DNA of 64,000 nucleotides from Candidatus Obscuribacterales bacterium (GCA_019637435.1 JAHBVO010000002.1:657519-721518); one strand, 5' to 3'; numbered from the stretch's first letter, positions 9,918 through 64,000 are shown. The notes: generated from the letters alone by a model not told the origin. Program-made: numbers and translations.

Positions 9918-9937
9918 ACCAAATCATCACAAGTCTT

Positions 9938-9975: not shown

Positions 9976-10035
9976 GCGCTAAAATCTCTGCTCTGAAACC
10001 AATTTTGTTTCAGTTGTTGTATGCAGGAGGCTAGC

Positions 10036-13145: not shown

Positions 13146-14162
13146 TTAGCTGCCTTTGAGGAAATCGAAGCGAGGAAGATCCATCGATCTTGTATATTCG
13201 CTATCGTCTTCGAACTTCATGATCTGTCCGACTGTCCGGCGGATTCCGGCGCAGATATTGTCTAACGGAAGGTCATCTCCATCATATCCGAACGGATCTT
13301 CGATGTCTTCCGCGATTAATTCGATTCCCACCAGGAAATAGGTTGCCGTTAATACAAGCGGCAAGCACCACCACATCGAAAAACTCTGTGACATGTACCA
13401 GGGCATCGCGAGCAGATTGAGCGCGATCCCCTGTCGCATGAAGGCTCTGTACGAAATCGCAATCGGACTGTTTTTAATCCGTTCGCAGCCCCCGGCGATA
13501 TCCATGAACGCGAGTGCGTGACGGTCAAACTGAAGCATGAGCATGCCGTCGACCTGGCCATCTCGACGCCATTTTTGCATTAATTCGAATATTTTCCCGG
13601 CGATGTGAACAGGGATGTTCTGGGCATCTACATCTGATACCACTCCCACTCCCGGAAGTGGGCGACTCGGTTTCGTGCCGCGCAAATGATGTTTTAGCGC
13701 GTATGCGAAAGAGATCACGAGCTCTCCCAGGCGAGCTTTGTCAGTATTTCTGATACCGTCTATGGAGCGTACCTTCAAACAAATGTTGCGAGAATCATTG
13801 ACCAGTTGTCCCCAGAGCTTTCGACCTTCCCACCAGCGTTCATATGCCGAATTGGTGCGGAATACCAGCAGCAAACCAAGTATGATACCGCTGGAAGAAA
13901 CAGCGCTGAATTCTTTGAACATGTGCGCCGGGAAGGTTTCCTCGGCAAACCAGTCAACTGCAATTGTGTAAACAGCCATTATTGCTACCCACACCCAGAT
14001 TCGCTTCACGACCGGAATTTTGTGCATGAGAACGAACGGGCGAGTCCATGAACGAATCCCTTTGATAAAACCGGGAGGTTCAGGTTGGCTCGATGGTGCG
14101 GTTGTAAAAGACAGCTCGATGTCGTCGGCGTCATCGAAACTGGGTGAAGCTGTAGAGGACAC
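13146..14162 (-). CDS. Bestrophin-family (UPF0187/YneE-like) anion channel
   Basis: Family hallmark FRTNSAYERWWEGRKLWG, plus several TM segments. Confidence 0.8.
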   Translation of the reverse strand: MSSTASPSFDDADDIELSFTTAPSSQPEPPGFIKGIRSWTRPFVLMHKIPVVKRIWVWVAIMAVYTIAVDWFAEETFPAHMFKEFSAVSSSGIILGLLLVFRTNSAYERWWEGRKLWGQLVNDSRNICLKVRSIDGIRNTDKARLGELVISFAYALKHHLRGTKPSRPLPGVGVVSDVDAQNIPVHIAGKIFELMQKWRRDGQVDGMLMLQFDRHALAFMDIAGGCERIKNSPIAISYRAFMRQGIALNLLAMPWYMSQSFSMWWCLPLVLTATYFLVGIELIAEDIEDPFGYDGDDLPLDNICAGIRRTVGQIMKFEDDSEYTRSMDLPRFDFLKGS

Positions 14163-38200: not shown

Positions 38201-40577
38201 TGCCAGTGGTGGCGCAGGCGGTGCTGGCGGATCCGGAAGTGTTGCCGGTGGTTCTGGCGGCGCAGGTGGTGCTGGCGGTCAAGGTGGCAATGCCTCGATT
38301 GTCGATATGTCTACTGAGTCAGGAGCTATTCTCGTAAACAACGCATCCGGCGCGGCAAGCCTCGGTGGTAACGGTGGCAATGGTGGTGCGGGTGGTAATG
38401 CCGGCACGGGAGGCAGCGGTTCTGGTGGTAGTGGAGGCAACGGCGGCAACGCAGGAAGCGCTGGCAATGCCAACCTCGTAAAAGTGTCTTCAACCAGTGG
38501 TAATATTGGCATTACCGGCGATGGTACGAGCGCAGGCTTCATTGTTGGTGGTGGCTTGAGTGCTCAGGGCAGTGTCGCCGCTGGAAATGGTGGCGCAGGC
38601 GGTGCTGGTGCTAATGGTTTCAGCGGCGGTGCCGGCGGTTTCGGTGGTAATGGCGGCTCGGTCGGTAGTGCGGGAACGCTCCAGGTTACTTCAAACACTG
38701 GCAACATCGATTTCAGTCAAAAAATTGTCATCATTGCTGCAAGCGGAGATGCCGGAAGTGGAGGCAGTGGCGGCAAAGGCGGCGATGCCACCAACTCGGC
38801 TGGAGATGGCGGTAACGCAGGTAGTGGGGGTACTGGTGGTACCGGTGGCGTGGGTGGTACCATGAACATCAGCACCGGTGGATCGGTAACGACTGGTGAT
38901 AAGTTCACTGCGGATGGTTCCGCCGGCGGTGCCGGTGGTAACGGTGGTGTCGCAGGCAACGGCGGCAGCGCGTCCGGCGATGGCGGCTCCGGGGGCTCCG
39001 GTGGAAATGGTGGCGCCGCCAACAAAGGTGGCAGCATCACGATTTCGGCGCAGAACGTCAATATGAATAACTTCACTGCCAACGGATCAAGATCCGGCAA
39101 CGGTGGTAACGGTCAGAATGGTGGTACTGCAGGCTCCACCGGAAACGGTGGCAATGGTGGCAGTGGCGGAAACGGCGGAGCTGCAGCCGGCGGTGGTACT
39201 GTAAAAATTACATCCACTTCCAACACAAATGCGAACGGAATCACGGTATCCGTTAAAGGTACAACAGACGGAAGTCAAACCGGTGGTAACGGCGGAAACG
39301 CCGGAGCCGGAGCAGCAGCGGGTGCATCTGGAAGTAAAACCAGCGGTGGTAATGGCGGCAATGGTGGCAGTGCTGGCGGTGGTTCTACAGCTGTCGGCGG
39401 GAATATAATATTGACGACTACTGCGGGCACGATCACTGCAAACGCTCTTAGCGCCAACGGCAATCTTGCCGGACTCGCTCGGAACGGCGGCGTTGGTGGC
39501 AATGGTGGCACGACTTCCAGTAATGGTGATGGCGGAAACGGTGGAAGTGGCGGCACAACAGGAAAAGGCGGAGCGATTACTGTCGGGTCAACGACCGGCA
39601 CTATAAATGTTGTGGGTCTTTCTGCAGCGGGTCGAGCGGCCTCGGATGGAGGAAACGGAGGGAATGGTGGCAACACCGGGACCTCAGGCGGCGATGCCGG
39701 AAACGGGGGGGCTGGTGGCTCGTCCGGCGGCGGTGGAAGCATCACAGTAAGTACCACTACCGGAGCGATTACGGCCAATAATGCGAACGCTTCCGGTAAC
39801 GATAAAAATGGAAGTGGTGGAAATGGTGGCACTGGCGGTTCCTCTGGAAATGGAGCTGGCGGAGACGGCGGCGCTGGTGGGGCAACTGGTGGCACCGGTG
39901 GTGGTGGCTCTATCAGTATCACTTCGACATCCGGCGACATAACGGCCCTGGGCGCAGATGCGAGTGCCGGCGTGGCGACCGCTGGCACTGCCGGAAACGG
40001 TGGCACCGGCGGAGCCGGTACGACTTCAGGTGGAGGAGGCGGTGCAGCTGGCTCGACCGGTAATGGTGGCGCTGGTGGTTCCATCAAAATCACTACAGGT
40101 ACGTCCAACACGGTCACTCTGGATACCTTGAATGTATCAGGGGGAAGCATCTTCAGCCCGGGGGCGACTGGTGGCACCGGTGGAAGCGGACCAGGCAAAG
40201 GCGGAGGCTCGGGCGGTAAAGCTGGAAACGGTTCGTCGGGCGGATCCGGCGGAACCATCAATCTAACGGGGGCGGTAACCGGTCTGACTACAGTGACTGC
40301 TGACGGCGGCGATGCGCAAGCGGGCGGTGACGGCGGCGTCGGGGGCGCTGGCGGACCGAAAGGCGGCAAAGGCGGACCTGGAGCCACAGGCGGAAATGGC
40401 GGCAATGGCGGGACCGTCACGAGCAACGCTGCTCTGGGCGTAACTCCGACTGTCAGTGGTGGGACCGGCGGCGCTGCCGGTTCCGGCGGGACAGGTGGAA
40501 CCGGAACCAAACCCGGCAAAGCTGGAAAGCCCGGCAAAGCAGGCGTCGACGGCACCAATGGCTCCGTAACGCCATAG
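35283..40577 (+). CDS. Giant secreted glycine-rich modular repeat protein (putative beta-solenoid surface fibre or adhesin)
   Basis: 1764-aa ORF with aggag SD and signal peptide KPLALGAALISFLQPSAAWA. The N-terminal ~600 aa are N/T/G/I-rich and hemagglutinin-repeat-like (ITARNIINSKGG, LIAQNGIYNSGDITGG). About 19 modules follow, each a GGxGG-rich stretch plus a short strand such as GGSITISAQN or GGKVTITSTTGDI. The C-terminus is a short G-X-Y run. Confidence 0.85.
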   Translation: MPKWNKPLALGAALISFLQPSAAWADGRGQNRGQDWQAAHFLELHGMSRAERHLMRAEQRDARIEARMDRVPRSSVDASTMVRNLSRPVQPAFSLGMLPNNLNLKSMKNTINLKKFGLLEPVTITAGGKQIVIDGSSRLTAAEAVAVRQILTTGTQTIELSAKGEAVGGSMVLNQDSGQQLGRLIIPTGVTVIDNGTTGEISVRGNIINQGSLYALSSSDGNSTTITARNIINSKGGLVTGAVPTTPSVDFGDLTHGVDLTLIAQNGIYNSGDITGGAGNSNVHLTTNNLQNNGSISSIDGSLNIDALNSRGNVRINNVGGTMSATAGDINIGSNNLAFTREINILGGDYNSKNLNLNGGNGVINGVLGNVSGKMNTSARIAHVGTNTETLVLGNTCITGDPTFWNTGNIDIQGDIIVNEALSILATGNITDTSGVQHIIRARADNGSGKEINIIAGADLTSSSGTKSPIIGPFPGTGSAIPNGAKVTVKGPSAGGGNIDLGISIIDASAQKQTNGNGGNVTLIAYSDTNGANGKIKILGFDSSVPGDVKTSINTGASGFGVDGHVMIIGGGTGADAINIGSINTIGGGGGVGNVTISNSNAVGTGIASSNGTLAGNLAPGALLGGTITTNIIQTGGGFLKIETGGTADLGKTLGSTNGITSTISAFYIGTGGALTVNADKINVLGDVRADGGPGVPGLSAGAGGKGGSGTIAGNGGALTLASGAGGVTVSSGKFVLAIGGSGGVGTAGGTAKPGKGGLSGGDGGDGGNGGKVTITSTTGDIVVNSGAIIAASGGAGGNGGAGSAGSSGAKGGAGGSGGNGGAAGDGGTLLIQTGSGNINLALASQVLAGGGISPLNQGGNGGAGGAGGAGTAGAGGNGGAGGNSGNGGAAGKLTITSSSGNISLGAIQNNGGAAGTAGAGGGGGSGTGGNGGKGGAGGAGGNGSAGGVLTIDANGSGTITTNNAIQSFGGSGASGGAGGAGGSGSVAGGSGGAGGAGGQGGNASIVDMSTESGAILVNNASGAASLGGNGGNGGAGGNAGTGGSGSGGSGGNGGNAGSAGNANLVKVSSTSGNIGITGDGTSAGFIVGGGLSAQGSVAAGNGGAGGAGANGFSGGAGGFGGNGGSVGSAGTLQVTSNTGNIDFSQKIVIIAASGDAGSGGSGGKGGDATNSAGDGGNAGSGGTGGTGGVGGTMNISTGGSVTTGDKFTADGSAGGAGGNGGVAGNGGSASGDGGSGGSGGNGGAANKGGSITISAQNVNMNNFTANGSRSGNGGNGQNGGTAGSTGNGGNGGSGGNGGAAAGGGTVKITSTSNTNANGITVSVKGTTDGSQTGGNGGNAGAGAAAGASGSKTSGGNGGNGGSAGGGSTAVGGNIILTTTAGTITANALSANGNLAGLARNGGVGGNGGTTSSNGDGGNGGSGGTTGKGGAITVGSTTGTINVVGLSAAGRAASDGGNGGNGGNTGTSGGDAGNGGAGGSSGGGGSITVSTTTGAITANNANASGNDKNGSGGNGGTGGSSGNGAGGDGGAGGATGGTGGGGSISITSTSGDITALGADASAGVATAGTAGNGGTGGAGTTSGGGGGAAGSTGNGGAGGSIKITTGTSNTVTLDTLNVSGGSIFSPGATGGTGGSGPGKGGGSGGKAGNGSSGGSGGTINLTGAVTGLTTVTADGGDAQAGGDGGVGGAGGPKGGKGGPGATGGNGGNGGTVTSNAALGVTPTVSGGTGGAAGSGGTGGTGTKPGKAGKPGKAGVDGTNGSVTP

Positions 40578-40695: not shown

Positions 40696-42840
40696 TTGAT
40701 TTGCAGATTGCACTCAAGCCGGGCGCGGGCGCTGTTGTCGATAGCAATCGTTTTGTCCGGACTCTTCCCATCTGTCTCGCTTGCAGAGAGCCGCTTCGAG
40801 AAGCAGGCACGGACGAATCAGCGAATGCTCGAGCGCGCATTGCTGAACGCCCCGAATGACGCCAACCTGCTAATGGCAAAAGTAAACTATTTAATAGCCC
40901 AGAAGAGTTATGATGCGGCCCTGTCAATTTGCGCCGAACAATTAAAAGTAGCTCCCGTTCAAGCTGTGCATGAACTCTCTGATTACGCTCTGCACTACTA
41001 CAGCTCCGTCCAAGCAGTCCCAACGAGAGGGAAGTGGTTGTGCCGCAAGGCCGAGATTGAATATGAGCTTGACCGCTTCGATGAAGCGCTAGAAGACTGC
41101 GAAGCGAGTCTAGCAACTTATTGCGAAGAACGGACGCGAGCGTACTTTCTTAAGAGCAGAATTCTATCTGCGATGGGCCGCCTGGGCGAATCCTGTAGTG
41201 CCTTTGACACCGGTGTTTATCTGGTTTCGGAGAGTTCAAGCCGCGATCGTTATCCGATTTCCCAGTACATGCGAGACACTGCACTTCAAATCGGCGTTCG
41301 CAAAGACCCGATAAAAGAAAGCGTTGACTCATACGTAGACAGTTATGCGGCAGAAAAATTCCAGCCGCGAATTGAACATGCCGATGATCTGCTGGAAATC
41401 ATTTATAAACTAGCTAATTTGAAGGCACCGGATTCGGTGGCTCAACTGAGGGGGGTCTTGAATTCAGAAGTATGCTACGAGACCCGTAAGAAAAATGCTG
41501 GTTATACTCTCTTTGCTCCGAGTGAAAGCTGGAGGAGCGGCTATTTTGTGAAAAATATTGGGACTTTTGCGAGAAACGAGCTAAATTTAAAACCAGACAT
41601 CTTGTATGCATGCGTATCTTCGGACAAGGTCAAGGCGAAGTTCGGTGAACCGTATCGTACAGATGGCATTGTCTTTCATTCTGATCCAACCTCGCTTCGA
41701 TACATCACACCGGAGTACGAGTTGATATTCAGCTTTAGTCATAGTGGAAGCAGGGCCCTAATGAACGTGCAAGTCCTCTGGAGCAGCGATGAGTATAAGA
41801 CTGCTGTCGCTGAGGCTAAGGTTAACCGTCAGACGCGGGAAGCAGCAGAAGGTATCGAGTCTGTTGCAATCGTTCAGAATGTTAGACAACTTATTGGAAT
41901 GGAGTTACCGACCAAGGAAGTCGTAGAGAAACTTTTTGGGCATAAACTCAACCCCTTCCGACTAACAGAACCCAGGAGTTGGTCCCTGGGTTATCAAAAT
42001 CCAAACTACAACGGCCCAGTTGATACCGACTATCAGCTCACTTTTGCGCCACTTGGCACGGTAGACACGGACGCCCAACTTCAAATTAGTCCAGGAACCC
42101 AGAATCACAAAATTAACAGAAAACAAGTCGAGTCAGTTTTCCCTTGCACCATCATAAGTACCGAGCCAAGCCCGAAACCAAGCAAGGCGCGGTTGACCAA
42201 AGCGAGCTACAAAGGTAAATTCGCTTCGCTGACTATGGAATTCGATAACAATCAACCGGGCTCGCCCGTGGGGCGAATTCTGTTGTGGTGGCAGGGCAAA
42301 AACGCGGCTCGAACACTTGAGGAATACGAGAAAGAACAATCGGTCAATACAATTCTTGTCGATGCCGATTGTGCGATTTCGCAACGCGACTTTGAGCGGG
42401 CTCGCTTCTTGTTGGACAGAGCGTTCAATCGGGCTGAGAATTCTGGTCAGAGAACGACAGCATTCGAGCAACTATCGAAGGTCAGAGCTGGTTACTTGAA
42501 ACTGTTCACTTATTTGAAGAAGCCGGGGGAAATAGCCTACCTGAAGAAGGTTTCTTGTGCGCAATTGCGAGGGGATTTACTAAACCCCGAGGAGCTTTCG
42601 CTGTATGACGGCGTATTCTTCCCAACAGACCGCCAGTTAAGGGGGCGATGGAGAGTGAACAAAAACTCATCTGGGAGTTCCTTGGAGTGCACAAAGCTTG
42701 GCATGTTCATGGCTCGGAATGCCGAAGATGAAACCGCGATGCGGAAACTTTATCCATACGGTACCGACGGCAGTTTCGACATTGAATGTCCTCCTGCGCA
42801 ACTGGTGGATTCCATGTACTTCGATTTGATGGCGAAATAG
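40696..42840 (+). CDS. Hypothetical secreted protein with N-terminal TPR-like helical repeats
   Basis: 714-aa ORF. Signal-like ALLSIAIVLSGLFPSVSLAES, then TPR-like helices (LLMAKVNYLIAQKSYDAALSICAEQL, AEIEYELDRFDEALEDCEASL). TTG start after gaggaa. Confidence 0.55.
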   Translation: MICRLHSSRARALLSIAIVLSGLFPSVSLAESRFEKQARTNQRMLERALLNAPNDANLLMAKVNYLIAQKSYDAALSICAEQLKVAPVQAVHELSDYALHYYSSVQAVPTRGKWLCRKAEIEYELDRFDEALEDCEASLATYCEERTRAYFLKSRILSAMGRLGESCSAFDTGVYLVSESSSRDRYPISQYMRDTALQIGVRKDPIKESVDSYVDSYAAEKFQPRIEHADDLLEIIYKLANLKAPDSVAQLRGVLNSEVCYETRKKNAGYTLFAPSESWRSGYFVKNIGTFARNELNLKPDILYACVSSDKVKAKFGEPYRTDGIVFHSDPTSLRYITPEYELIFSFSHSGSRALMNVQVLWSSDEYKTAVAEAKVNRQTREAAEGIESVAIVQNVRQLIGMELPTKEVVEKLFGHKLNPFRLTEPRSWSLGYQNPNYNGPVDTDYQLTFAPLGTVDTDAQLQISPGTQNHKINRKQVESVFPCTIISTEPSPKPSKARLTKASYKGKFASLTMEFDNNQPGSPVGRILLWWQGKNAARTLEEYEKEQSVNTILVDADCAISQRDFERARFLLDRAFNRAENSGQRTTAFEQLSKVRAGYLKLFTYLKKPGEIAYLKKVSCAQLRGDLLNPEELSLYDGVFFPTDRQLRGRWRVNKNSSGSSLECTKLGMFMARNAEDETAMRKLYPYGTDGSFDIECPPAQLVDSMYFDLMAK

Positions 42841-54862: not shown

Positions 54863-55107
54863 TGTTGATTCCTTTGTGTGCGTCTGCTGGTGCGCTTTGA
54901 CTGTCAGTTCCAAGTCCAAAAATTGACCAGCCTGACTCAGACTTGCCGCCTAGTATGGCATACCGGCTCATGACATGTGGGGGATTGTGAAGTTATGCGC
55001 GTGAGAAGATAGTCAGGAGCGATGGTACTGAGTCTCTGAGCCAGTCTTGGAGAAGACAAGAAGCTGTTTTCTTCGCCGGAGATGTCTTGTGAAACCGGCA
55101 TCGCGCA

Positions 55108-55425
55108 TCACAGTTGCTTCAAGGTCTCCTGAACATCTATAAGATGATTGTTGAAAATCTCTTTGGCGACGTCGAGAAGCCTGAAAACAGTAGGGTCTAT
55201 GCAGGAATAGTAAATGTTGTTGCCTTGTTTGCGAGCGGCGACAAGATTCTTGCTTTTCAGCACCGCGAGCTGCTGGGAGACGTTTGGCATCTCAACCTCG
55301 AGACGCTCGGTGATCTCCGAAACCGTTAACTCTTGTTCGCGCAACTGATCGAGAATTCTGATTCTCAGCGGGTTTGCGAGTGCTTTGAAGAACTCGGCTT
55401 TGAATTTTGCTAATTTCTCTGCCAT
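55108..55425 (-). CDS. ArsR/SmtB family transcriptional regulator, divergent from the Hyf-like operon
   Basis: FKALANPLRIRILDQLREQELTVSEITERLEVEMPNVSQQLAVLKSKNLV is a winged-HTH ArsR signature. Confidence 0.85.
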   Translation of the reverse strand: MAEKLAKFKAEFFKALANPLRIRILDQLREQELTVSEITERLEVEMPNVSQQLAVLKSKNLVAARKQGNNIYYSCIDPTVFRLLDVAKEIFNNHLIDVQETLKQL

Positions 55426-55651
55426 TTGTCTTTGACTGAGTGTTTCCTACGAACCTCATTCTACATGCTTTGCATTGGCTGAAAGGTAGTTGTGATCAAC
55501 TTGTGTTCGCCGGAAGTGCCTATCTTGCACGATTTCGGGCGCTTTGCCAGGTTCGCCTCAAGTTGGATGTTTGAACCCGCTGACATCCATGATAAGCTGA
55601 TTGCATAGTTTCGCAATTGCGTAATTAGTTTCGATTAAATCCGGCTTCCTA

Positions 55652-57634
55652 ATGAATCCCTCCCTGATCTCTTCTCTTTGTTTGACAACCGCCCTAATGG
55701 CATTGCCAACATTGTTCTTCAGGAAGGCGAATAGCGTCGCTCTCTCTCTTCTGACGTTGATGTTCTCTCTTTTGCTCAGCGCTCTGGTAGTTGCCACAGC
55801 CATCGATGCGCGCTGGGCCGCCCCCGCGTGGCTGTCGGTCGGCTCTTTTCCGATGACGTTCCAGCTCGATAACTTGTCGGTTGCCTTCATCTTGCTACTC
55901 ACGGTACTGGCTTCAGCTGTGGCTCTTTTCTCGCCTGGATATTTGAAACACTTTGACGAAACCGTCAATCGCGGCTTGTACTGGGCTTCTTTCCTTGTCT
56001 TCGTATCCTCGATGGCGCTCGTGGTGTTAAGTGCCGATGCTGTGACTTTCCTGGTCTTCTGGGAGCTGATGTCGATATCTTCCGGCGCACTGGTCGCCAC
56101 TAATCATCAGAACCACAGCGTCCAAAAAGCATCGCTGATATATCTGGGAGCGACCAGGGTCGCTACCGGTTTTCTCGCGGGTGGTTTTCTCTGGATGCAT
56201 TCGCTTACGAACAGTTGGGCTTTTCAAGATTGGCACTTCATCACAAATGCGAGCGCTCAACTTGGTGCCTCAACAAGTGGTGCACATTTTGCCGCTTTTC
56301 TGATTTTTATCGGATTCGCCATCAAAGCTGGCATCTGGCCCTTCCACTTATGGTTGCCCTACGCTTACCCGGCTGCTCCATGCACGGTGTCATCTCTAAT
56401 GAGTGCCGTGAGCAAAATTGCGTTGTATGGACTTATCCGCATTCTTGTTCTTGGCGATCTCGATTCCCCGATTTTAGGTTATCTCGCTATTTTTCTTGGA
56501 ACCATCTCTGCCTTCTGGGGGGTCTTATTCGCGCTTATCCAAACTGATTTGAAGAAAACTCTGGCGTACTCGAGTGTCGAAAATGTAGGACTTATCCTGC
56601 TTGCGATAGGCGTTTGCCTGGTCGCAAAGACGAACGGTTTATTGTCGGTAGCTGCGATTGCGCTTTCCGCTGGTTTGTTTCATGCCATCGGACATGGCGT
56701 ATTCAAAGCCTTGATGTTCTTAGGTGTTGGCACCGTTCAATGCGCTACGCATACATCGCGTATCGGGCACCTCGGCGGTCTATTGAAAAAAATGCCTACA
56801 ACCTCCACTTGTTTCCTAGTAGGTGCTATGGCTATTTGTGCGTTGCCGCCGCTAAACGGTTTTATGGGCAAATGGATGCTGTATCAGTCTTTGATGCAGA
56901 ATACGTGGCTTTCAGGTTCGCCGGTCGGAGCCGGCGTCTCGCTGAGCGTCATTTGCGTGTTAGCTCTCGTTGGAGGTCTGTCTATCGCCTGTTTTGCAAA
57001 TGCATTTTCTGTCTCATTCCTGGGTGAACCGCGCTCCTCATCCGCTGCGCGTGCCTTCGAGGGAGATATTGGAAGCAGTTGCGCTCAGGTCTTTCTTGCC
57101 GCTCTATGTCTCGCGCTCGGCTTGTTTGCTGTGCCCGTCATAGGATTTCTGAAACCGATATGTGATGCGGCCTTGCATTCGGACACCACCGTCGCAGCGA
57201 CGATTCACTTCTCTCTCTCGTCGGTACTTATTGTTTTTACTTCGCTTTTCGCTTTGATATATCTTCTAATTTTGAAACCTTCCAAGGTGCGGCGCGGGAT
57301 TATCTGGGAGTGTGGTTTCGGAAGTGTTTCTGCCAGGGCGCAGGTAACTGCGGACTCGTTCGCGCAGCCAATTGCACGCATCTTTAACAAACTGCTGAGT
57401 TACAGCGTTACCTGCGAAATCGAGGGCAGTGACAGGCGCCACTTCCCGGAGCGAATAACCGTCGCACCGCATACGGCATCACATATCGAGCGCCGGATTT
57501 ACCAGCCCTTTTTGAAACTTATTTCGTTCATCGCACGCTCGCTGGCTAAGTTGCAGTCCGGAAGTATTCATCTTTATCTCGTATACCTCTGCGTGACGCT
57601 GATTGCGCTCTTGATTGTCGGAAGGAGTTTCTAA
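55652..57634 (+). CDS. HyfB/NuoL-like antiporter-type membrane subunit of a group-4 hydrogenase-related (Ehr-type) complex
   Basis: 660-aa polytopic protein with the PF00361-like core (FWELMSISS, GFAIKAGIWPFHLWLPYAYPAAP, LAYSSVENVG). First gene of a tightly packed six-gene operon. Confidence 0.8.
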   Translation: MNPSLISSLCLTTALMALPTLFFRKANSVALSLLTLMFSLLLSALVVATAIDARWAAPAWLSVGSFPMTFQLDNLSVAFILLLTVLASAVALFSPGYLKHFDETVNRGLYWASFLVFVSSMALVVLSADAVTFLVFWELMSISSGALVATNHQNHSVQKASLIYLGATRVATGFLAGGFLWMHSLTNSWAFQDWHFITNASAQLGASTSGAHFAAFLIFIGFAIKAGIWPFHLWLPYAYPAAPCTVSSLMSAVSKIALYGLIRILVLGDLDSPILGYLAIFLGTISAFWGVLFALIQTDLKKTLAYSSVENVGLILLAIGVCLVAKTNGLLSVAAIALSAGLFHAIGHGVFKALMFLGVGTVQCATHTSRIGHLGGLLKKMPTTSTCFLVGAMAICALPPLNGFMGKWMLYQSLMQNTWLSGSPVGAGVSLSVICVLALVGGLSIACFANAFSVSFLGEPRSSSAARAFEGDIGSSCAQVFLAALCLALGLFAVPVIGFLKPICDAALHSDTTVAATIHFSLSSVLIVFTSLFALIYLLILKPSKVRRGIIWECGFGSVSARAQVTADSFAQPIARIFNKLLSYSVTCEIEGSDRRHFPERITVAPHTASHIERRIYQPFLKLISFIARSLAKLQSGSIHLYLVYLCVTLIALLIVGRSF

Positions 57635-57636
57635 CG

Positions 57637-58605
57637 ATGTGGCAATCAATGTCGACGGAGACATTTTTATTTGAAACCGCACGATGGATCCTATTTGCCG
57701 TAATCACTTTTGTTATGCCGATCTTGACGATCGGTGTTGTTAGGAAAACCAGAGCTCGAATGCAAGGGCGGATGGGCGCGCCCCTTTTGCAGGCGCTTTT
57801 CGACCTTCGCAAGTTGATGCAGAAAAGTGAAGCAGTAAGTTCCACGGCAACGTGGATATTCCGCTCCGGCGCGGGTATTGAACTGGCAAATATGCTTTTA
57901 CTTTCCACTCTTGTTCCCTGGATCGCGAATAAGCCGGATGGTGTGAGCAGCGATTTGTTTCTCATCGTTTATCTCTTTGCGCTCAGCCGATTGTTTGCAA
58001 TCCTTGCAGCGTTAGACTCCGGCTCGCCTTTCGGTGCCTTCGGAAGCAGCAGGGATGCGACGTTAGCCATGCTTGTTGAACCCGCTTCACTTCTCGCTCT
58101 TGTCTCCCTTGCAGTCGTCGCCAAGTCAACCGAGATGAATGTGATTTTCTCATTGACAAACGTTTTACTGGCGCACGATCCGGGTCTGTGGTTTCTCGCC
58201 GGCACCGCAATTGTGATGGCTAGTCTGGTTGAGCTATCGCGCATGCCGGTTGACGATCCTGCAACTCACCTGGAGTTGACGATGATTCACGAGGCGATGC
58301 TCCTCGAAAGTTCCGGTCGAAATCTCGCCCTTCGTGAGTTCACCAGAGCGCTCAAGATGACTGTGTTGTTCGGACTTTCCGCCCAGTGTTATCTGCGCGC
58401 CTGGGATGATTTCTGGCATTTTCCAGTTGTGGCGCAGGTCTGGCTAAGTATTGGTGGCATTCTCGGACTCGCTCTGCTAGTGGGTCTGTTCGAGAGTGTC
58501 TCGGTGAAGCTTCAGTGGCGTAAAGTGCCTGAATTCATATCTTACTGCATGACGCTCAGCTTACTAGCCGCAATGGTGGCAGTGGCTCGGGGGGTAGTAC
58601 ATTGA
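57637..58605 (+). CDS. HyfC/HycD/NuoH-like membrane subunit
   Basis: 322 aa. RKTRARMQGRMGAPLLQALFDLRKLMQK resembles the NuoH/HycD N-terminal signature. SD aggag. Confidence 0.75.
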   Translation: MWQSMSTETFLFETARWILFAVITFVMPILTIGVVRKTRARMQGRMGAPLLQALFDLRKLMQKSEAVSSTATWIFRSGAGIELANMLLLSTLVPWIANKPDGVSSDLFLIVYLFALSRLFAILAALDSGSPFGAFGSSRDATLAMLVEPASLLALVSLAVVAKSTEMNVIFSLTNVLLAHDPGLWFLAGTAIVMASLVELSRMPVDDPATHLELTMIHEAMLLESSGRNLALREFTRALKMTVLFGLSAQCYLRAWDDFWHFPVVAQVWLSIGGILGLALLVGLFESVSVKLQWRKVPEFISYCMTLSLLAAMVAVARGVVH

Positions 58606-59252
58606 GTTTCACGCCTGCGGAATGGAGTTTGATTGCATCGGCGACTGTCGCGATTTTGATGGTCGGCTCGTTGCATGTGCGAGTAAATCTTTTCGGCTAT
58701 TGTGTCCTAACCGTGCTGATTTCGCTTGCTACCATGTTCTCAGCCATCGATCATCACGAAACCTCCATGTTCTACCTTGCTGGCGCGATAGCTCTTCTAA
58801 AAGGAATATCAATTCCGTTGTTTTTGTACTGGATCATCGGTAAGTTAAAGCTTGGTAGCGATAGTGGTGCTGTCCTCTCTGCACCACTGGCGATGCACTT
58901 GAATATCGGTCTCACTATCATGAGTTATTTCCTCGTCTCGGAATTTCCTGTTCCTTTAGGTGAGTTGCGAACATGGGTCGGCGCTATGGCGGCTATCTCT
59001 ATGGTTTTGACAGGAATCGTGTTAATGCTTATTCGGCGATTGGCAATCAGTCAGATCATCGGATTTCTCGTGTTGGAAAATGGAATTTATATTTTTGCTC
59101 TCACCCAAACACGCGGAATGCCGCTAATCATAGAGATGGGGGTGGTGCTTGATGTGCTGGTCGGGGTAATGATTGCAGGTCTATTGATGTTTCGAATTCA
59201 GAGCAGTTTTGAGCACATAGACGTGTCGAAGCTAACCGATTTGAGAGATTAG
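58602..59252 (+). CDS. HyfE-like small membrane subunit
   Basis: 216-aa polytopic ORF with the position and size of hydrogenase-4 component E. Its start overlaps the upstream stop. Confidence 0.6.
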   Translation: MSFTPAEWSLIASATVAILMVGSLHVRVNLFGYCVLTVLISLATMFSAIDHHETSMFYLAGAIALLKGISIPLFLYWIIGKLKLGSDSGAVLSAPLAMHLNIGLTIMSYFLVSEFPVPLGELRTWVGAMAAISMVLTGIVLMLIRRLAISQIIGFLVLENGIYIFALTQTRGMPLIIEMGVVLDVLVGVMIAGLLMFRIQSSFEHIDVSKLTDLRD

Positions 59253-59256
59253 ACAA

Positions 59257-60690
59257 ATGGAAACCATCGGCTTCATCAGTTTAACTCCATGCTTGATCGT
59301 CCTGACGGTGTTGTTGGTGCGGCACAAACCGTTTGTACGATTTGTCTTGCCTATCTTATTTTGGATACAGCTAGCGGCCGTGGTTTACGTTGTGGCGCCT
59401 CTGTTTCAGCGAAATGCTGTTTCACTCGCTCTGACTCCCGATTTCAAAATTGATTCTCTTGGCTCTCTATTCATGACCTTGACTGCGTTCGTCACTGCTT
59501 GCGCAATGTCTCATGCAAGAGTATTTTTTGAAGTGGAAGACGCGCGCGCTGGAGAGTCATATCAGTTTGAACATGAGCGCATCTTTTACGCATGCGCGGC
59601 GCTGTTTTTGCTCGCAATGAATTTCGTGTTCATCTCCGATAATCTAGGATTTCTCTGGATCAGTATAGAAGCGACCACACTCTCGTCGGCTGCCTTGATC
59701 TATTACGGACGAACAAAACATACTCTGGAAGCGACGTGGAAGTATCTCGTCGTTTGTTCCGTCGGAATCGCATTTGCATTGTTTGGCACTATTCTTCTCT
59801 TTGCTTCCAGCCAGCATGGTGCGATCGAGCATGGGTCACTGAATCTGAGCGAACTGACGGCACATGCTGACGCTTTGGAGTTTCGCTTGCTCCGGCTTGG
59901 ATATATTTTCTGTCTGGTCGGTTATGGTACCAAAGCTGGTGTCTTTCCGCTTCATAGCTGGTTGCCTGATGCGCATTCGGAAGCGCCGGCCCCAGCGTCA
60001 GCGATTCTTTCCGGCGCGCTACTCAACTGTGCTCTCTTCGCAATCTGGCGTTTGTCGCAACTTGTCAGCGCCGCGCATCATGAGGCTCTCGCAACTAATT
60101 TGCCGTTGGCGCTTGGAACCGTCACCGCTCTGGCAGCAAGTTTCTTCCTGATTCACCAACATGGTATAAAGCGATTGTGGGCTTACTCGAGTATTGAGAA
60201 TGTCGGCATAATGCTGGTTGCAATTGGTTTGAGCAGCGGACCTCTATTTTTCTTGCAGGCGCTCAACCACAGTATTGCCAAAGTTGCTCTGTTTCTTTTA
60301 GCCGGAAACATCATCCAATCTGCGGGAACCAAAAATCTTGCAGACATCCGGGGATTACTACAATCTGCGCCATCGTGGGCGGTGCTATTTGCCGTCGCTG
60401 CTCTTGCCGTGACGGGAGCTCCCCCGAGTGGCGCCTTCCTCAGCGAACTGCTTATACTCCTTCAAGCGATGGATCAGAAACGGTTTATTGTTGTAATCTC
60501 ATTGATAGTCGCTTTGAGCATCAGTTTCATCGCTGTATCCGTGCACGTTTGCAGAATTCTCTTTGGTTCGGAAAAATCGAATTTTGCAAAGCTTAAACCG
60601 TTTTCTACCAGTATAGTTCCGGCTCTGCTTGTCGCCCTTTCGCTACTATGCGGTGTGACTGCTCTTCCTATATTATTGTCTAAGCCATGA
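59257..60690 (+). CDS. HyfF/NuoM/NuoN-like antiporter-type membrane subunit
   Basis: 477 aa with the PF00361-like core (GYGTKAGVFPLHSWLPDAHSEAPAPASAILSG, WAYSSIENVG). Confidence 0.8.
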   Translation: METIGFISLTPCLIVLTVLLVRHKPFVRFVLPILFWIQLAAVVYVVAPLFQRNAVSLALTPDFKIDSLGSLFMTLTAFVTACAMSHARVFFEVEDARAGESYQFEHERIFYACAALFLLAMNFVFISDNLGFLWISIEATTLSSAALIYYGRTKHTLEATWKYLVVCSVGIAFALFGTILLFASSQHGAIEHGSLNLSELTAHADALEFRLLRLGYIFCLVGYGTKAGVFPLHSWLPDAHSEAPAPASAILSGALLNCALFAIWRLSQLVSAAHHEALATNLPLALGTVTALAASFFLIHQHGIKRLWAYSSIENVGIMLVAIGLSSGPLFFLQALNHSIAKVALFLLAGNIIQSAGTKNLADIRGLLQSAPSWAVLFAVAALAVTGAPPSGAFLSELLILLQAMDQKRFIVVISLIVALSISFIAVSVHVCRILFGSEKSNFAKLKPFSTSIVPALLVALSLLCGVTALPILLSKP

Positions 60691-62201
60691 TTGAAAACGC
60701 GCACATAGTTAGAATCAACGTCGACGGTCAAGAGCGGATGACCCGTTTGAAAACCATGCTGCACGTGCCTGGAAATCGTCTTGGATTGATAACTTCGATT
60801 GATGGCTCCCAGCTTGTGACTTTGCTTCTCGATACTAACACCGGTCGAAGCACAGTGTGGGAGACTCCCCTATCATCCGACGTCTATCCTTCTCTAACTA
60901 TGATGATTCCGCAGTGCCACTGGTTTGAGCGGTCCACATGGGACATGTTCGGTTTGAAGCCGAATGGCCATCCTCGTTTAAAACACAATCTGCTCCATGA
61001 ACCTTATGACGCATCGCTCTTTCCGCTGAAGACAGACCATGAAGTTGAGTCTCATGATACAGACCGTTTCTATAAGTGTCTGGAAGTCCGCGGGCAGGGT
61101 GTTTACGAAATTCCGGTCGGTCCTATCCATGCCGGCATCATAGAGCCAGGTCACTTCAGATTCAGTTGTCTGGGAGAAGTGATACTGAACCTCGAGATTC
61201 GACTCGGATATGTTCATCGCGGTGTTGAAAAGCGAATTGTCGAAGTACCGCTCAGTCGAATGCGATTCGTCGCTGAATCGGCTGCTGGGGACATGATCGC
61301 GGCGAATGCCCTTGCTCACGCTGTGGCGGTGGAATCTTGTTTACAGATCGAAGAGTCTCCACGTGCCCGTGCTTTCAGAACAATTTCTCTGGAACTGGAG
61401 CGCATCGCCATGCATGTGAGCGATCTGGGAGGTCTTGCCGGTGATATCGGATTTGCTGCTGTTAGCACTTCGATGGCGATCCTTCGCGGCGATGTTCTCG
61501 GATGCGCTGAACTCCTTACTGGAACCAGATTTCAGAAGGGCTTTATTGCTCCTGGTGGCATATCACGAGAGCCGTCGGACAAAAATTTGTCCCAGCTACG
61601 AACGAATTTGAAAAAGATTCAACTGAAGTTAAAACCGATTGTAGACTTTCTGTTTTCGAATCAGGTCGCTCGCGATCGAATGACCAACGTTGGCATTTTG
61701 ACTCCAAAACTAGCAGCAGACTTCGGGGTAGTCGGTGTGGCCGGCCGAGCTAGTGGTATTGCCTATGATGCCCGAAAGTCATTTGTCCATGGCTGTTTTC
61801 CCCGGCAAAATATGGTGCTTCCGGTGCAGCAGGCTGGAGATGTTTTAAGTCGCGCCAAAGTTCGCGCTGAAGAATTGCGAAGTAGTCTTGAAATAATTTA
61901 TGAAATTTTGGAGACCTTGCCCGGGGGAGATACTGCTGGTGCCCATCACGACCTTCGCTCTCTGAATCGGTTTAAGTTTAAGACAAATGATTGCGGAATA
62001 GGTATTGTCGAGTCTTTTCGCGGCGAACTGATTCATCTGTTCTTCACCGACGGCGATGGCAAGATTATTCGATATGCAATAAAAGATCCCAGTGTGAACA
62101 ATTGGACTGCGTTGGCTATCGCTGTTAGAAACAATTTGCTGTCCGACTTTCCTCTCTGCAACAAGAGTTTTGGTCTGTCATACAGCGGTCATGATTTGTG
62201 A
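60687..62201 (+). CDS. HycE/HyfG-like fused NuoC-NuoD 'large subunit' homologue lacking NiFe-binding cysteines
   Basis: NuoC-like HWFERSTWDMFGLKPNGHP. VGPIHAGIIEPGHFRF..RLGYVHRGVEKR aligns with E. coli HycE IGPLHVTSDEPGHFRL..FYVHRGMEKL. Where HycE has DRVCGICGFAH this ORF has ESAAGDMIAAN, and the C-terminal DPCYSCTDR is GLSYSGHDL. Confidence 0.8.
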   Translation: MIENAHIVRINVDGQERMTRLKTMLHVPGNRLGLITSIDGSQLVTLLLDTNTGRSTVWETPLSSDVYPSLTMMIPQCHWFERSTWDMFGLKPNGHPRLKHNLLHEPYDASLFPLKTDHEVESHDTDRFYKCLEVRGQGVYEIPVGPIHAGIIEPGHFRFSCLGEVILNLEIRLGYVHRGVEKRIVEVPLSRMRFVAESAAGDMIAANALAHAVAVESCLQIEESPRARAFRTISLELERIAMHVSDLGGLAGDIGFAAVSTSMAILRGDVLGCAELLTGTRFQKGFIAPGGISREPSDKNLSQLRTNLKKIQLKLKPIVDFLFSNQVARDRMTNVGILTPKLAADFGVVGVAGRASGIAYDARKSFVHGCFPRQNMVLPVQQAGDVLSRAKVRAEELRSSLEIIYEILETLPGGDTAGAHHDLRSLNRFKFKTNDCGIGIVESFRGELIHLFFTDGDGKIIRYAIKDPSVNNWTALAIAVRNNLLSDFPLCNKSFGLSYSGHDL

Positions 62202-62209
62202 GGTTCTAG

Positions 62210-63127
62210 ATGATTAGACTCTTGAATTATCTGATCACGAGGAAAATCGCCACGTCCAAAGCACTTTTCGCACCACTTGGTGATGGCGTGCGTGGTTTGC
62301 CCATGCTTACAGGCGAGTCGATTTCTGAAGCTGAGGCAGTCGAGTTGGCGGAAGGTTGCCCGGCTGGGGCGATTCGTGTGCTGGAGAAGGAGGATGGTCG
62401 CCAAGTATTGGAGATGGACCGTGGAGCCTGCACAACATGCGGTTTTTGCCTGGATGTTTATCCAACTGCTGCGATAAAAAGCGATCCTAACACCATGATT
62501 GCAACTCGCAAACGCGATCAACTTATTTCGAGCGTGGCTTTGAATGATACTTCCCTAGATACTGCATCTGGTGTCGCAGGTGATACTGCTTGTAAGACTG
62601 CATCTGGTGTCAAAACCGATACTGCAGGCGGTGTACATGAGTTTTTTGAAGCCGCCGACAACTTGCCACAAGACGCCATTGAGTCGGATCTCGCTCGGGA
62701 AAATTTGATTTCGAAAATTTTCGGGCGCTCAATTGCAATCAGAGTGGTCTCAACCGGATGTAGTTCCTGTGACCTCGAGATTGGAGCCGCAGGCAATCCA
62801 ATCTTCGACATGGAGCGATTCGGAATGCATGTCGTAGCGTCCCCGCGTTTCGCCGATGTCTTATTGGTTACCGGACCTGTGCCGAAAGCGATGCACGAGC
62901 CATTGAGGCTTTGCTATGAGGCGATGTCGGAACCTCGGCTTGTGGTCGCAGTTGGAAGCTGTGCGATTTCAGGAGGCGTGCTCAAAGACAGCTACGCGCA
63001 AGCTAATGGAGTCGGGGCGGTATTACCGGTCGACGTTTTCATCCCGGGGTGTCCTCCCCATCCTTGGAGCATAATTGACGGCATCGCCATGGCTATGGGG
63101 CGAAAGCGTCAGGGGCGCCTAAAGTAG
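62210..63127 (+). CDS. Fusion of a degenerate ferredoxin (HycF/NuoI-like) module to a HycG/NuoB-like small subunit
   Basis: The N-terminus has GCPAGAI and CTTCGFCLDVYP. The C-terminus has NuoB-type ligand motifs GCSSCDLE, GSCAISGG and GCPPHP. The linker contains TASGV/DTA repeats. Confidence 0.75.
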   Translation: MIRLLNYLITRKIATSKALFAPLGDGVRGLPMLTGESISEAEAVELAEGCPAGAIRVLEKEDGRQVLEMDRGACTTCGFCLDVYPTAAIKSDPNTMIATRKRDQLISSVALNDTSLDTASGVAGDTACKTASGVKTDTAGGVHEFFEAADNLPQDAIESDLARENLISKIFGRSIAIRVVSTGCSSCDLEIGAAGNPIFDMERFGMHVVASPRFADVLLVTGPVPKAMHEPLRLCYEAMSEPRLVVAVGSCAISGGVLKDSYAQANGVGAVLPVDVFIPGCPPHPWSIIDGIAMAMGRKRQGRLK

Positions 63128-63311
63128 GTGTGGATTGTTAAAACCTGTAATTGCATAATTGCGCAAGCGGTTTGATTCAGCTTAGAATGGCTATCAAATG
63201 AGTCAGATTTTCGGGGCAGTTTTCTTTTAGACGCCAGGTTTGAACTATCTGAAATCGGCGGCGTGTGCCAAGATCATTCTGTGTCTCAACATTTTTCAAA
63301 CGGTCGATCGC

Positions 63312-63962
63312 ATGACAATGAACATTCCTCCGCCTCTAAGGGGCGATGAAAAGTATCGTGATTTGCTAATTCACATAGAGTCGATTCCGGATGTGCCGGT
63401 TCAGTGGAAGGGCACGCCTATTGAGTCGTTTATCATGGCACAGAACTTTGGCTGGCCTATTCAGGGCTCTGGCAAGGTCGAACTGCTCATCTCTACATGT
63501 ATCGAGTTTCGATACGCACTGCCAATCCCGCGAATGTACGCTTATGTAATTCGTAGAGCCAGCGGGCGCGTTCTCGGCTCTGAGTTTAGCGTTGGTTACA
63601 CGATGGCGCAAGGCGTTAAGTATCTCGCATTGATTGGTCATAACGATTGCGGTATGGCGAAGGCGCTCACCAATGCACCACGAGTGGTGGCGGCTCTTGT
63701 CGAGCAAGGCTGGGATGCCGACCTCGCGCAGCAGTACGTTGAAAATCAGCTAAAGCGTCACGCGATCAACGATGAGCTGGATGCGCTCCGCGAAGAGTTT
63801 ATTCGATTAAAACGTGTTTTTCGGAAACTGTTGATTGCGCCACTGTTCGTTTGTCTTCATGACAGTAAATTATATGTTCCTGCTTGGTATGACAGTTTGA
63901 ACACGGAGCTTGATGCCGAAGAGCCGAACGCGCCTCGAGATCTTATCGAAAATTTGCTGTAG
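63312..63962 (+). CDS. Beta-carbonic-anhydrase-like protein
   Basis: STCIEFRY (CxExR in place of CxDxR), YVIRRASGRV (compare FVxRNAGNxV) and LALIGHNDCGM (HxxCG) occur in the order and spacing of beta-class carbonic anhydrases. Start taken at the ATG at 63312. Confidence 0.5.
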   Translation: MTMNIPPPLRGDEKYRDLLIHIESIPDVPVQWKGTPIESFIMAQNFGWPIQGSGKVELLISTCIEFRYALPIPRMYAYVIRRASGRVLGSEFSVGYTMAQGVKYLALIGHNDCGMAKALTNAPRVVAALVEQGWDADLAQQYVENQLKRHAINDELDALREEFIRLKRVFRKLLIAPLFVCLHDSKLYVPAWYDSLNTELDAEEPNAPRDLIENLL

Positions 63963-64000
63963 CCGGCTGTTTTAGATCAACTGTCGTTTAAACCGGTTGG

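Follow-up and report, generated by a model that had tools for sequence, protein, structure and literature searches.

Modules of the complex-I family tied to CO2 hydration are a known kind of machine. Schuller et al. in 2020 reportedly described the cyanobacterial NDH-1MS and NDH-1MS' complexes, with CupA/CupB, as a complex-I-family machine coupled to CO2 hydration. In addition, DAB2 is a hydratase that resembles beta-carbonic anhydrases (beta-CAs), is gated by the proton motive force, and is bound to a PF00361 subunit (PMC13144422). Complexes termed energy-converting hydrogenase-related (Ehr), a name used here for sets of group-4-hydrogenase-like subunits with antiporter-like subunits and no NiFe ligands (PMC6349859, PMC10284858), have been recognised bioinformatically for more than 10 years in many phyla. 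They have been noted in Melainabacteria, comammox Nitrospira, and Mycobacterium tuberculosis, whose locus belongs to the dormancy response; in agreement with an earlier, sequence-only reading of the DNA analyzed here, they are described in this literature without an assigned function (PMC6349859, PMC10284858, PMC6728331). Here, we describe a locus from a 64-kb stretch (hereafter, the window; all coordinates are window positions) of a Candidatus Obscuribacterales bacterium, a member of the non-photosynthetic 'Melainabacteria', in which six Hyf-type genes for a membrane complex are followed by the gene for a carbonic-anhydrase-like protein, hereafter CAL. All the evidence is comparative, and four independent kinds of it support that the CA-like gene belongs with the complex. 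We tentatively read the locus as an ion-translocating module coupled to cytoplasmic CO2/HCO3- interconversion, a reading that we hold as a good possibility short of a probable one, and that would make the locus a new version of the kind of machine named above.

The locus is not a member of the NDH-1MS or DAB systems, whose defining proteins are absent. Its likeness to NDH-1MS/CupA lies in the hydration of CO2 at the cytoplasmic side of an antiporter-like subunit, which is a proposal in the present case, and in the hosts, which are sister lineages. CupA and CupB, however, do not have the beta-CA fold, and neither is present here. NDH-1 is, moreover, a plastoquinone reductase with a NuoD-type quinone site, whereas the complex described here is of the hydrogenase type. 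The likeness to DabA/DabB is that PF00361 subunits, of which there are two in this locus, have a genetic tie to a cytoplasmic protein whose Cys2His zinc site is of the beta-CA type, and the proposed logic of ion-flux-gated CO2 hydration is also alike (PMC13144422). On the other hand, no open reading frame (ORF) of the locus matched the DabA family PF10070; DabA has two beta-CA-like domains and transmembrane 'fingers', whereas CAL is a small, single Cab-type domain without fingers; and the DAB partner is a single DabB with no counterpart to the peripheral Fe-S arm of the six-subunit complex found here. The replacement of the catalytic Asp with Glu also sets CAL apart from DAB.

The six genes occupy positions 55652-63127 on the + strand and are separated by 2-8 bp or overlap by 4 bp. 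The sequence-only reading had assigned them to HyfB, HyfC, HyfE, HyfF, HyfG, and a fused HyfH/HyfI (hereafter, HI), and the Pfam and NCBIfam matches confirmed this assignment (Table 1), with all NCBIfam scores of the subunits below the equivalog cut-offs. The best PDB match of the large subunit was E. coli HycE (7z0s_E, E 3e-55, vs 1e-31 for NuoD), and the next-best matches were MbhL (6cfw_L) and 6u8y_L, which we take to be P. furiosus MBS. In the alignment with 7z0s_E, the four NiFe cysteines of HycE corresponded to A200, M203, S498, and G501, with RVCGICGFAH (CGIC) changed to SAAGDMIAAN (AGDM) and DPCYSC to GLSYSG. The claim that the catalytic subunit cannot bind NiFe was thus borne out, and when 102 relatives were aligned, the ligand positions were occupied by A/S, T/S, S, and G in ~90-95 % of the sequences. 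In the same alignment, the pocket that replaces the metal site was near-invariant (E197, D202, N492-K493-S494, Y499, and D503), and the C-terminus was conserved as DFPLCNKSxxLSYSGHDL. Moreover, two cysteines, C161 and C491, were found to co-vary: both were present in 73 sequences and one only in 4, and the four sequences that retain the NiFe cysteines have neither of them. This pair may form a new site, dithiol or metal, where the old active site was. Inspection of the HycE alignment by eye, with no direct Nqo4 alignment, showed no Tyr at the expected quinone-site place in the AAGDM motif.

No match to the Hyp, formate dehydrogenase (FDH), HycI, or DabA (PF10070) families was detected in the locus genes, among the other ORFs of the window (the 30 largest), or in the 10 kb past the window end, the last as judged from a 95 % identical relative (L001; relatives' loci are given L-numbers throughout). 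The absence of formate dehydrogenase and maturation genes stated by the sequence-only reading therefore held in these ORFs and in the 10 kb beyond. The E. coli Hyf/Hyc formate hydrogenlyase (PDB 7Z0S) remains the closest solved homologue of the large subunit, and the logic of the gene order and the B/C/E/F/G/H/I subunit types are alike; the present locus differs from it in the lack of NiFe ligands, HyfA/HycB, FdhF, Hyp, and HycI, the fusion of HyfH to HyfI, and the loss of the distal Fe-S cluster. On these comparisons, the complex is predicted to be an Ehr-type, NiFe-less homologue of Hyf. The partnership between FDH and Ehr that was proposed for Margulisbacteria/Saganbacteria (PMC6349859) is not seen here, and this model was discarded for the present loci, near which there are no fdhA or nuoEF-like genes.

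CAL was searched alone and with a profile of its family. Alone, it gave no significant match in Pfam or NCBIfam, PF00484 being reported with an E value of 0.035 and 14.8 bits versus a gathering cut-off of 25.7, and the PDB sequences returned sub-threshold beta-CA hints only. The family profile matched the M. thermautotrophicus enzyme Cab (PDB 1G5C) with an E value of 1.4e-5 and with the motifs C-x-[DE]-x-R and G-H-x-D-C-G-M in exact register, so that Cys63, Glu65, Arg67, His110, and Cys113 of CAL correspond to Cys32, Asp34, Arg36, His87, and Cys90 of Cab. An AlphaFold2 model built from the family alignment had a predicted local distance difference test (pLDDT) of 89.4 and a predicted template modelling score (pTM) of 0.85. 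When this model was compared with the PDB using Foldseek, the top 50 matches were all members of the beta-CA family, i.e., beta-CAs or CS2/COS hydrolases, with a probability of 1.00, and the best was again Cab (1g5c, E 9e-8). A persulfide/COS role, combining such a hydrolase with a BigR-like ArsR regulator, was discarded, since the regulator has one Cys versus the two needed, BigR was far below the cut-off, and the hydrolases were no better fold matches than the CAs.

The segments C63-I-E65-F-R67 and G-H110-N-D-C113-G-M were invariant in 39 CAL homologues with identity down to 50 %, in agreement with the Cys/His/Cys zinc-ligand pattern that had been noticed in this gene. All the Obscuribacterales CAL sequences contain the motif C-I-E-F/Y-R, where the Arg is kept and the catalytic Asp is changed to Glu, and C-M-D-x-R is retained in CAL relatives at 29-35 % identity from Bacteroidota, Ignavibacteria, Chloroflexia, and Omnitrophota. 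The Asp-to-Glu change is specific to the Obscuribacterales CAL family. CAL also differs from Cab in a conserved N-terminal extension of ~40 aa (DIPxxWxxTPIExxIxxQNFGWPI) and in extra C-terminal helices. Based on the model and the profile, we consider that CAL is a derived, Cab-type beta-CA-fold protein with putative zinc ligands and Glu in place of the catalytic Asp. The beta-CA-like identity proposed earlier was therefore upheld for the fold, the Cab-register motifs, and the zinc ligands, but not for the PF00484 score, which stayed sub-threshold, nor for the catalytic Asp.

The CAL family is small, with 258 proteins in a word-indexed search and 248 in an exhaustive search of 1.84 billion representatives. 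Its Glu-type branch has expanded in the Obscuribacterales, with 2-3 paralogues per genome, only one of which is complex-linked (L022/L050/L056 belong to one metagenome-assembled genome (MAG) and L051/L062 to one contig, and the expansion is general among L026-L070). An apparent association of unlinked paralogues with ArsR or odd CA genes was dismissed, as it came from short contigs of the complex-linked type only. In the window, CAL is the sole copy, and no other CA gene was found. The mechanical CAL ORF covers positions 63240-63962; because the homologues begin with MNIPPP, the real start is the ATG at 63312 or 63318. With the corrected start, the HI stop and the CAL start are 184 bp apart on the same strand, matching the distance of about 185 bp given by the sequence-only reading. 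In L001, this gap is 364 bp (9638-10000), compared with 184 bp in the window (63128-63311), which indicates an indel of ~180 bp.

Next, the neighborhood of CAL was compared among relatives. A scan with the CAL alignment as query and one genome per species returned 80 loci, and 24 of these carried complex subunits beside CAL, with 4 more being short contigs where CAL abuts ArsR. Every CAL at least 60 % identical to the window copy was in the complex-linked or the ArsR-linked set, and the neighborhood, whose conservation the sequence-only reading had proposed as a check, was therefore strongly conserved. Four gene orders were distinguished. In order A, to which the window belongs, a minus-strand ArsR gene is followed by B-C-E-F-G-HI and then by CAL, with or without an intervening PF00484 gene (bCA). 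Order B has HI to B on one strand, divergent from [bCA]-CAL-ArsR; order C has ArsR-CAL, the reversed complex, and then bCA (L065); and in order D, ArsR and CAL lie together, divergent from the complex (L104, L168, L169). A few loci were labelled Proteobacteria, Chloroflexota, Bryobacterales, or Oculatellaceae, as the MAG bins are imperfect.

When the flanking ORFs of 107 complex loci were clustered, the most recurrent neighbors were CAL (26), ArsR (24), and PF00484 genes (17). Most of these loci had been found through CAL, and a sample chosen by the large subunit, from a metagenome scan and look-ups, was added as an unbiased set, with at least 1.5 kb on both sides of each locus. In this set, a CA-family gene was adjacent in 3/4 loci with a large subunit at least 55 % identical to that of the window, in 3/6 at 45-55 %, and in 0/20 below 45 %. 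Within the near clade, i.e., at least 45 % identity, a CA gene was present in six of the seven ArsR-bearing loci versus none of the three ArsR-less loci. The PF00484 genes were of two types. The first is a canonical, CynT-like CA (FITCSDSR...GHSxCGA, 162 bits), and the second is atypical (C-[SA]-E-[MVL]-x ... HxxC, 43 bits), having Glu for Asp and no Arg, and lies directly upstream of CAL. The atypical gene is not in the window and was found in L002 (9354-9983), L006, L009, L012-L014, L021, L022, L054, L065, and L085; the L054 locus has all three beta-CA-fold types, i.e., CAL, the atypical PF00484 gene, and the canonical one. The complex was found without CA genes in L086, L089, L170, and L171. 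In L170 (10501-15220), the complex and ArsR are followed by convergent genes for a dihydroorotate dehydrogenase and a 1240-aa pyruvate:ferredoxin oxidoreductase (PFOR), the latter being a possible source of ferredoxin and CO2.

In most ArsR-bearing loci, a 16-bp palindrome with a consensus near TTGCRYAATTGCGCAA was found 40-125 bp upstream of the opening gene of the complex. Exactly two matches to TTGC-N8-GCAA exist in the 64-kb window, a count at chance level (shuffle mean 2.09), and they are placed one before the complex and one before CAL (Table 1); the positions, unlike the count, are significant. The two gaps holding them add up to 410 bp, and the chance that both random sites land there is ~4e-5. 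A 16-mer identical to the second copy of the window lies upstream of the complex in L085, a second copy precedes the downstream CA gene in the order-A loci L001, L002, L015, and L085, and the 95 % identical relative retains the copy that comes right after HI despite the indel in the gap. In divergent arrangements, one copy lies in the gap common to the complex and bCA/CAL. Analysis of 300-bp promoter windows from 38 loci gave 28 palindromes, 20-fold over the 1.35 expected from the rest of the loci, with a binomial p = 7e-24 that overstates independence, since the loci are related; the N8 core varies while the arms are kept. Moreover, the palindrome was upstream of the complex in 24/29 ArsR-bearing loci compared with 0/9 ArsR-less loci. 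From these data, we infer that the palindrome serves ArsR as its operator and that a single regulon takes in CAL/bCA and the complex. The CAL of the window is likely to be a separate transcription unit, because it appears to have its own operator copy and has the 184-bp gap in front of it.

Other searches of the intergenic DNA were negative. The 8-mers common to both intergenic regions were not significant on their own, as 63 % of shuffles share one, and the Rfam scan of the locus gave no match. A promoter/terminator consensus scan of positions 54900-64000 gave counts at or below the shuffle expectation, with none in the HI-CAL gap on the + strand, and the scan was uninformative on co-transcription.

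The divergent ArsR-family gene placed upstream of the complex by the sequence-only reading was confirmed by family matches (Table 1). Its best PDB match was M. tuberculosis Rv0081 over the full length (6jmi_A, E 9.6e-19), with NolR next (6e-13), and it contains no alpha3 CxC, no alpha5 metal site (DxH...HxxE), and a single Cys. In 24 loci, this regulator either diverges from the complex or adjoins it. Rv0081 represses its own gene independently of metals and is the first gene of the rv0081-rv0088 'hyc' locus, which is regarded as an Ehr complex (PMC6728331; bioRxiv 10.1101/465575). It is also a hub regulator of the M. tuberculosis hypoxia genes (bioRxiv 10.1101/465575; PMC6728331) and has been reported to be without known sensory sites (bioRxiv 10.1101/465575). 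The M. tuberculosis Rv0081-Rv0087 locus resembles the one studied here in its Hyf/Hyc-type set with antiporter-like subunits, in the large subunit without CxxC NiFe motifs, and in the ArsR-family repressor that heads it, and the regulator and complex of the window look like a homologue of this mycobacterial Ehr locus. What differs from the Ehr literature searched is the linkage to beta-CA-fold genes and the common TTGC-N8-GCAA, neither of which is mentioned there; searches of PMC and bioRxiv, with subscription-only papers such as Marreiros et al. 2013 lying outside, turned up no link between Ehr and carbonic anhydrases. The Rv0081 operator was also considered as cross-support and set aside, as the reported M. 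tuberculosis half-sites, TATCT/TCTTC, differ from TTGC-N8-GCAA.

SulP-CA fusions are said, after Felce and Saier in 2004, to be a classical indication of bicarbonate transport metabolons. Among the longer matches of the exhaustive search, a CAL-type domain with the N-terminal extension (DIP...RGTPVES...NF) was found fused to the C-terminus of a SulP transporter. The 851-aa protein P0269 consists of Sulfate_transp, STAS, and CAL-type domains, and four fragments with STAS and CAL-type domains were found besides; another CAL-type domain is fused to a PTS-HPr domain. The SulP fusions keep the catalytic Asp. They are thus like the known SulP-CA fusion transporters, whereas the CAL of the window is free-standing and has the Hyf-like complex, not SulP, as its synteny partner. 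Distant NiFe-less complexes (large subunit 36-40 % identity) have a co-directional HTH_17+PTS_EIIA_2 gene upstream in 11 loci (L100, L103, L109, L115, L118, L121, L122, L126, L141, L150, and L152), and a SulP-STAS transporter beside them in five (L089, L103, L109, L121, and L148). This distant HTH_17+PTS_EIIA_2/SulP module is without CA or ArsR genes. Three separate links thus connect these elements: the complex with CAL by synteny and operator, the complex with SulP/PTS by synteny, and CAL with SulP/PTS by fusion. The window also holds, on the minus strand at 13146-14162 and 40 kb from the locus, a gene of the bacterial bestrophin family (PF25539, 1e-59). Bestrophins are anion channels and conduct bicarbonate in some organisms.

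Table 1. Features of the Ehr-type locus and the CAL gene in the window.
Feature	Position	Strand	Matches or placement
ArsR/SmtB-family regulator, Rv0081 type	55108..55425	-	PF01022, NF033788
Operator-like palindrome TTGCATAGTTTCGCAA, TTGC-N8-GCAA	55601..55616		ArsR/complex divergent promoter region, 36 bp before the first complex gene
HyfB/NuoL-like antiporter-type subunit, 660 aa	55652..57634	+	PF00361 3e-57 and PF00662; NCBIfam hydrogenase 4 subunit B 4e-149
HyfC/NuoH-like membrane subunit, 322 aa	57637..58605	+	PF00146 2e-32
HyfE-like membrane subunit, 216 aa	58602..59252	+	NCBIfam NF008556 hydrogenase 4 membrane subunit 8e-17; weak PF00420
HyfF/NuoM-N-like antiporter-type subunit, 477 aa	59257..60690	+	PF00361 9e-50; NCBIfam hydrogenase 4 subunit F 1e-97
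Large subunit, HycE/HyfG-like NuoC+NuoD fusion, without NiFe ligands	60687..62201	+	PF00329+PF00346
HI, HyfH-like ferredoxin domain and HyfI/NuoB-like domain, 305 aa	62210..63127	+	PF01058 3e-30 and Fer4 families
Second operator-like palindrome TTGCATAATTGCGCAA	63151..63166		27 bp past the HI stop, 146 bp before the CAL start
CAL, predicted derived Cab-type beta-CA fold, 216 aa	63312..63962	+	Family profile, AlphaFold2, Foldseek; putative Zn ligands C63/H110/C113

The closest relative of the locus is on a 2.59-Mb contig of a Candidatus Obscuribacterales MAG, with protein identities of 94-100 % and an identical gene order. The HyfE-like gene has a TTG start that overlaps the preceding stop, and relatives carry the same 216-aa gene call. 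Both antiporter-like subunits keep the hallmark Glu/Lys channel residues, namely E138, K225, K352, and K407 in the HyfB-like subunit and E137, K225, K341, and E397 in the HyfF-like one, and because of this, the membrane arm looks competent for ion translocation. In HI, the NuoB-type 4Fe-4S ligands C184, C187, C251, and C281 are kept, and a low-complexity linker of ~60 aa joins the ferredoxin and NuoB-like domains. Neither the window nor the 95 % identical relative retains the first ferredoxin motif, CxxCxxC, and in the window HI alone the fourth Cys of motif 2 is gone as well (Y84), so that only one of the two ferredoxin-type clusters can remain. Among 70 HI homologues, most keep all 12 Fe-S cysteines; the distal cluster was lost independently in at least four other lineages (L110, L112, L131, and L139), and the NuoB/N2-type cluster in six sequences (L093-L095, L098, L134, and L153). 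This erosion is unexpected for an obligately redox-driven enzyme, and electron transfer may not be the only energy input of the complex.

Elsewhere in the window, a DEAD-box helicase gene lies beyond the divergent ArsR gene. Two plus-strand ORFs of 1764 and 714 aa (35283-40577 and 40696-42840), neither with a Pfam match at E 1e-5, sit in a G+C bump (0.60 at 38-40 kb versus ~0.49-0.51 elsewhere) with a strong positive GC skew. A minus-strand gene for a bacterial type IB topoisomerase (27357-28523; PF01028 and PF21338) adjoins a plus-strand DNA photolyase gene (25406-26872) and is unrelated to the locus.

Other explanations for the locus were weighed against the coupled CO2/HCO3- module. The complex could be a redox-driven ion pump, i.e., an oxidoreductase that takes electrons from ferredoxin or another low-potential donor to an acceptor, like Pyrococcus Mbx/MBS or a minimal complex I, and we regard this as a real possibility, if a doubtful one. 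Electrons would run along the 4Fe-4S chain to a site formed by Cys161/Cys491 and the conserved Asp/Glu/Lys/Asn/Tyr, where a quinone, a disulfide, or sulfane-sulfur would be the acceptor, and the CAs would be accessories that equilibrate CO2 from ferredoxin-producing decarboxylases (PFOR) or buffer protons/bicarbonate at the cytoplasmic face. The conservation of all 12 Fe-S cysteines in most HI subunits is what such a pump would be expected to show, as are the near-invariant residues at the former NiFe site and the co-varying Cys pair found in NiFe-less sequences only. The P. furiosus complexes Mbx/MBS (6U8Y) and MBH (6CFW), the matches that come after HycE, are group-4-hydrogenase-derived respiratory complexes, and MBS has no NiFe site and carries out a non-hydrogen redox chemistry; they differ from the present complex in a much larger Mrp-type membrane module, in having no CA partner, and in an identity lower than that to HycE. 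The canonical, soluble beta-CAs beside the complex would fit an equilibrating, not a vectorial, role, and a convergent PFOR directly follows the complex in one locus. Nevertheless, neither an electron-donor module nor a ferredoxin gene is conserved in the flanks of the complex loci, and the Fe-S ligands are eroded, at the NuoB/N2-type cluster in the six sequences listed above and, in the window, at the distal cluster. Where complex I has its quinone Tyr, there appears to be Gly/Ser, as seen by inspection of the HycE alignment, with no direct Nqo4 alignment. A redox pump also leaves unexplained that the most conserved partners are atypical, Glu-type CA-like proteins, not ordinary CAs.

The genes may alternatively share a regulator and nothing else, as parts of a stress regulon of the Rv0081-type repressor responding to hypoxia, acid/alkaline pH, or energy limitation as in M. 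tuberculosis, with the Ehr or Mrp-like complex and the CAs contributing separately to pH or sodium and carbon homeostasis. The separate transcription likely for CAL, the operons of many loci that join CA genes with ArsR and not with the complex, the hub role of Rv0081 among hypoxia genes, and the complexes without CA genes in the four loci listed above are all consistent with this explanation. We judge it improbable, as the CA genes stay attached to either end of the complex through several rearrangements, the independent SulP-STAS links of both partners suggest a common process and not timing alone, and the two operator sites in 64 kb make the regulon look local, not global, in the window. 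It is far more improbable that CAL is no pathway enzyme but a sensor partner that binds CO2/bicarbonate or zinc, provides the ligand input that the Rv0081-type repressor, nearly Cys-less and with no metal site, is missing, and in this way controls the expression of the complex. CAL is adjacent to and co-directional with ArsR in many loci, with gaps down to ~28-50 bp, the Asp-to-Glu change could lock the zinc site, and the regulator is without known sensory sites, as reported for Rv0081 (bioRxiv 10.1101/465575). Against this role, the complex stands between CAL and ArsR in the window and other order-A loci, keeping them 8 kb apart, and the zinc ligands and the dyad Arg are invariant, as expected for catalysis; furthermore, a beta-CA that serves an ArsR protein as a direct co-regulator is, to our knowledge, without precedent. 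Finally, a genuine formate hydrogenlyase or energy-converting hydrogenase, with maturation and formate dehydrogenase genes elsewhere, is hardly credible. The subunit set is that of Hyf/Hyc, as are the best NCBIfam and PDB matches, and relatives are annotated as 'Ni,Fe-hydrogenase III large subunit' in their sources, but none of the four NiFe cysteines survives in the window or in ~90-95 % of the 102 family members, the NCBIfam scores are all below the equivalog cut-offs, and no hyp, hycI, or fdh genes turned up among the window ORFs scanned or, in the close relative, within the next 10 kb. We rejected this explanation on the missing NiFe ligands.

The reading of the locus as an ion-translocating module coupled to CO2/HCO3- interconversion is favored by the intact ion channels, the eroded electron-input chain, the atypical, possibly gated, Glu-type CA partners, and the SulP links. 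According to it, the Rv0081-type ArsR repressor, the six-subunit NiFe-less Ehr-type complex, and CAL would form one regulon, and the complex would carry two intact antiporter-like channels for protons or sodium. At the cytoplasmic face, CAL would hydrate CO2 with zinc bound via Cys63/His110/Cys113, and relatives would supplement CAL with a second CA-like protein of the Glu type and/or a canonical beta-CA. The antiporter-like subunits would carry away the proton from the hydration, or ion influx would power the reverse reaction, and CO2 would be trapped as bicarbonate that supplies carboxylations and/or serves the homeostasis of pH and inorganic carbon. In this scheme, we infer that ArsR binds the palindrome and that CAL is catalytically active and touches the complex, as well as the direction and the energy source of the coupling.

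Several observations weigh against this reading. CAL, whose binding to the complex and catalysis are here proposed, has Glu for Asp and a sub-threshold PF00484 score. Most members of the family keep all three 4Fe-4S clusters, and the constrained old NiFe pocket with its new Cys pair suggests a redox reaction not obviously related to CO2. Away from the complex, the CAL paralogues (41-59 % identity, with as many as three in a genome) have no conserved neighbors. No CA neighbor was found in 4/10 near-clade loci of the unbiased set or in any of its 20 distant loci, and the loci come from phylogenetically related MAGs, the counts not being independent events. SulP transporters are not specific for bicarbonate. 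Moreover, the canonical, apparently cytoplasmic beta-CAs beside many complexes would short-circuit a disequilibrium pump like DAB. Hence, from the CO2-linked module proposed by the sequence-only reading, a functional link to CO2/HCO3- is retained, with the common palindrome, the Rv0081-type regulator, and the SulP-STAS fusions pointing to it, whereas the canonical cytoplasmic beta-CAs argue against a strict DAB/CupA-like pump. A broader proposal is that Ehr-type complexes are a third, independently evolved class of energy-coupled CO2/bicarbonate machine, after NDH-1MS/CupA and DabAB, with derived Glu-Arg-dyad beta-CA subunits in Obscuribacterales and SulP-type transporters in other phyla. We consider this generalization unlikely, although conceivable.

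If this broader proposal is true, it would provide the first function for an orphan family that includes the hypoxia-induced Rv0082-Rv0087 locus of M. tuberculosis, and a CO2-hydrating relative of complex I would exist in the non-photosynthetic sister lineage of Cyanobacteria. Should the coupling be vectorial, this would be a third independent solution to energised CO2 hydration and would bear on the origin of the cyanobacterial CO2-concentrating NDH-1 variants. Even if the complex is a redox pump, its chemistry and regulation can be newly approached through the Glu-dyad CA-like proteins and through the Cys161/Cys491 pair that has taken the place of the NiFe site. The orphan Ehr class gains its first testable link to CO2/bicarbonate or pH handling, a link that rests on three kinds of beta-CA-fold genes, a common operator, an Rv0081-type regulator, and the cross-phylum association with SulP-STAS transporters.

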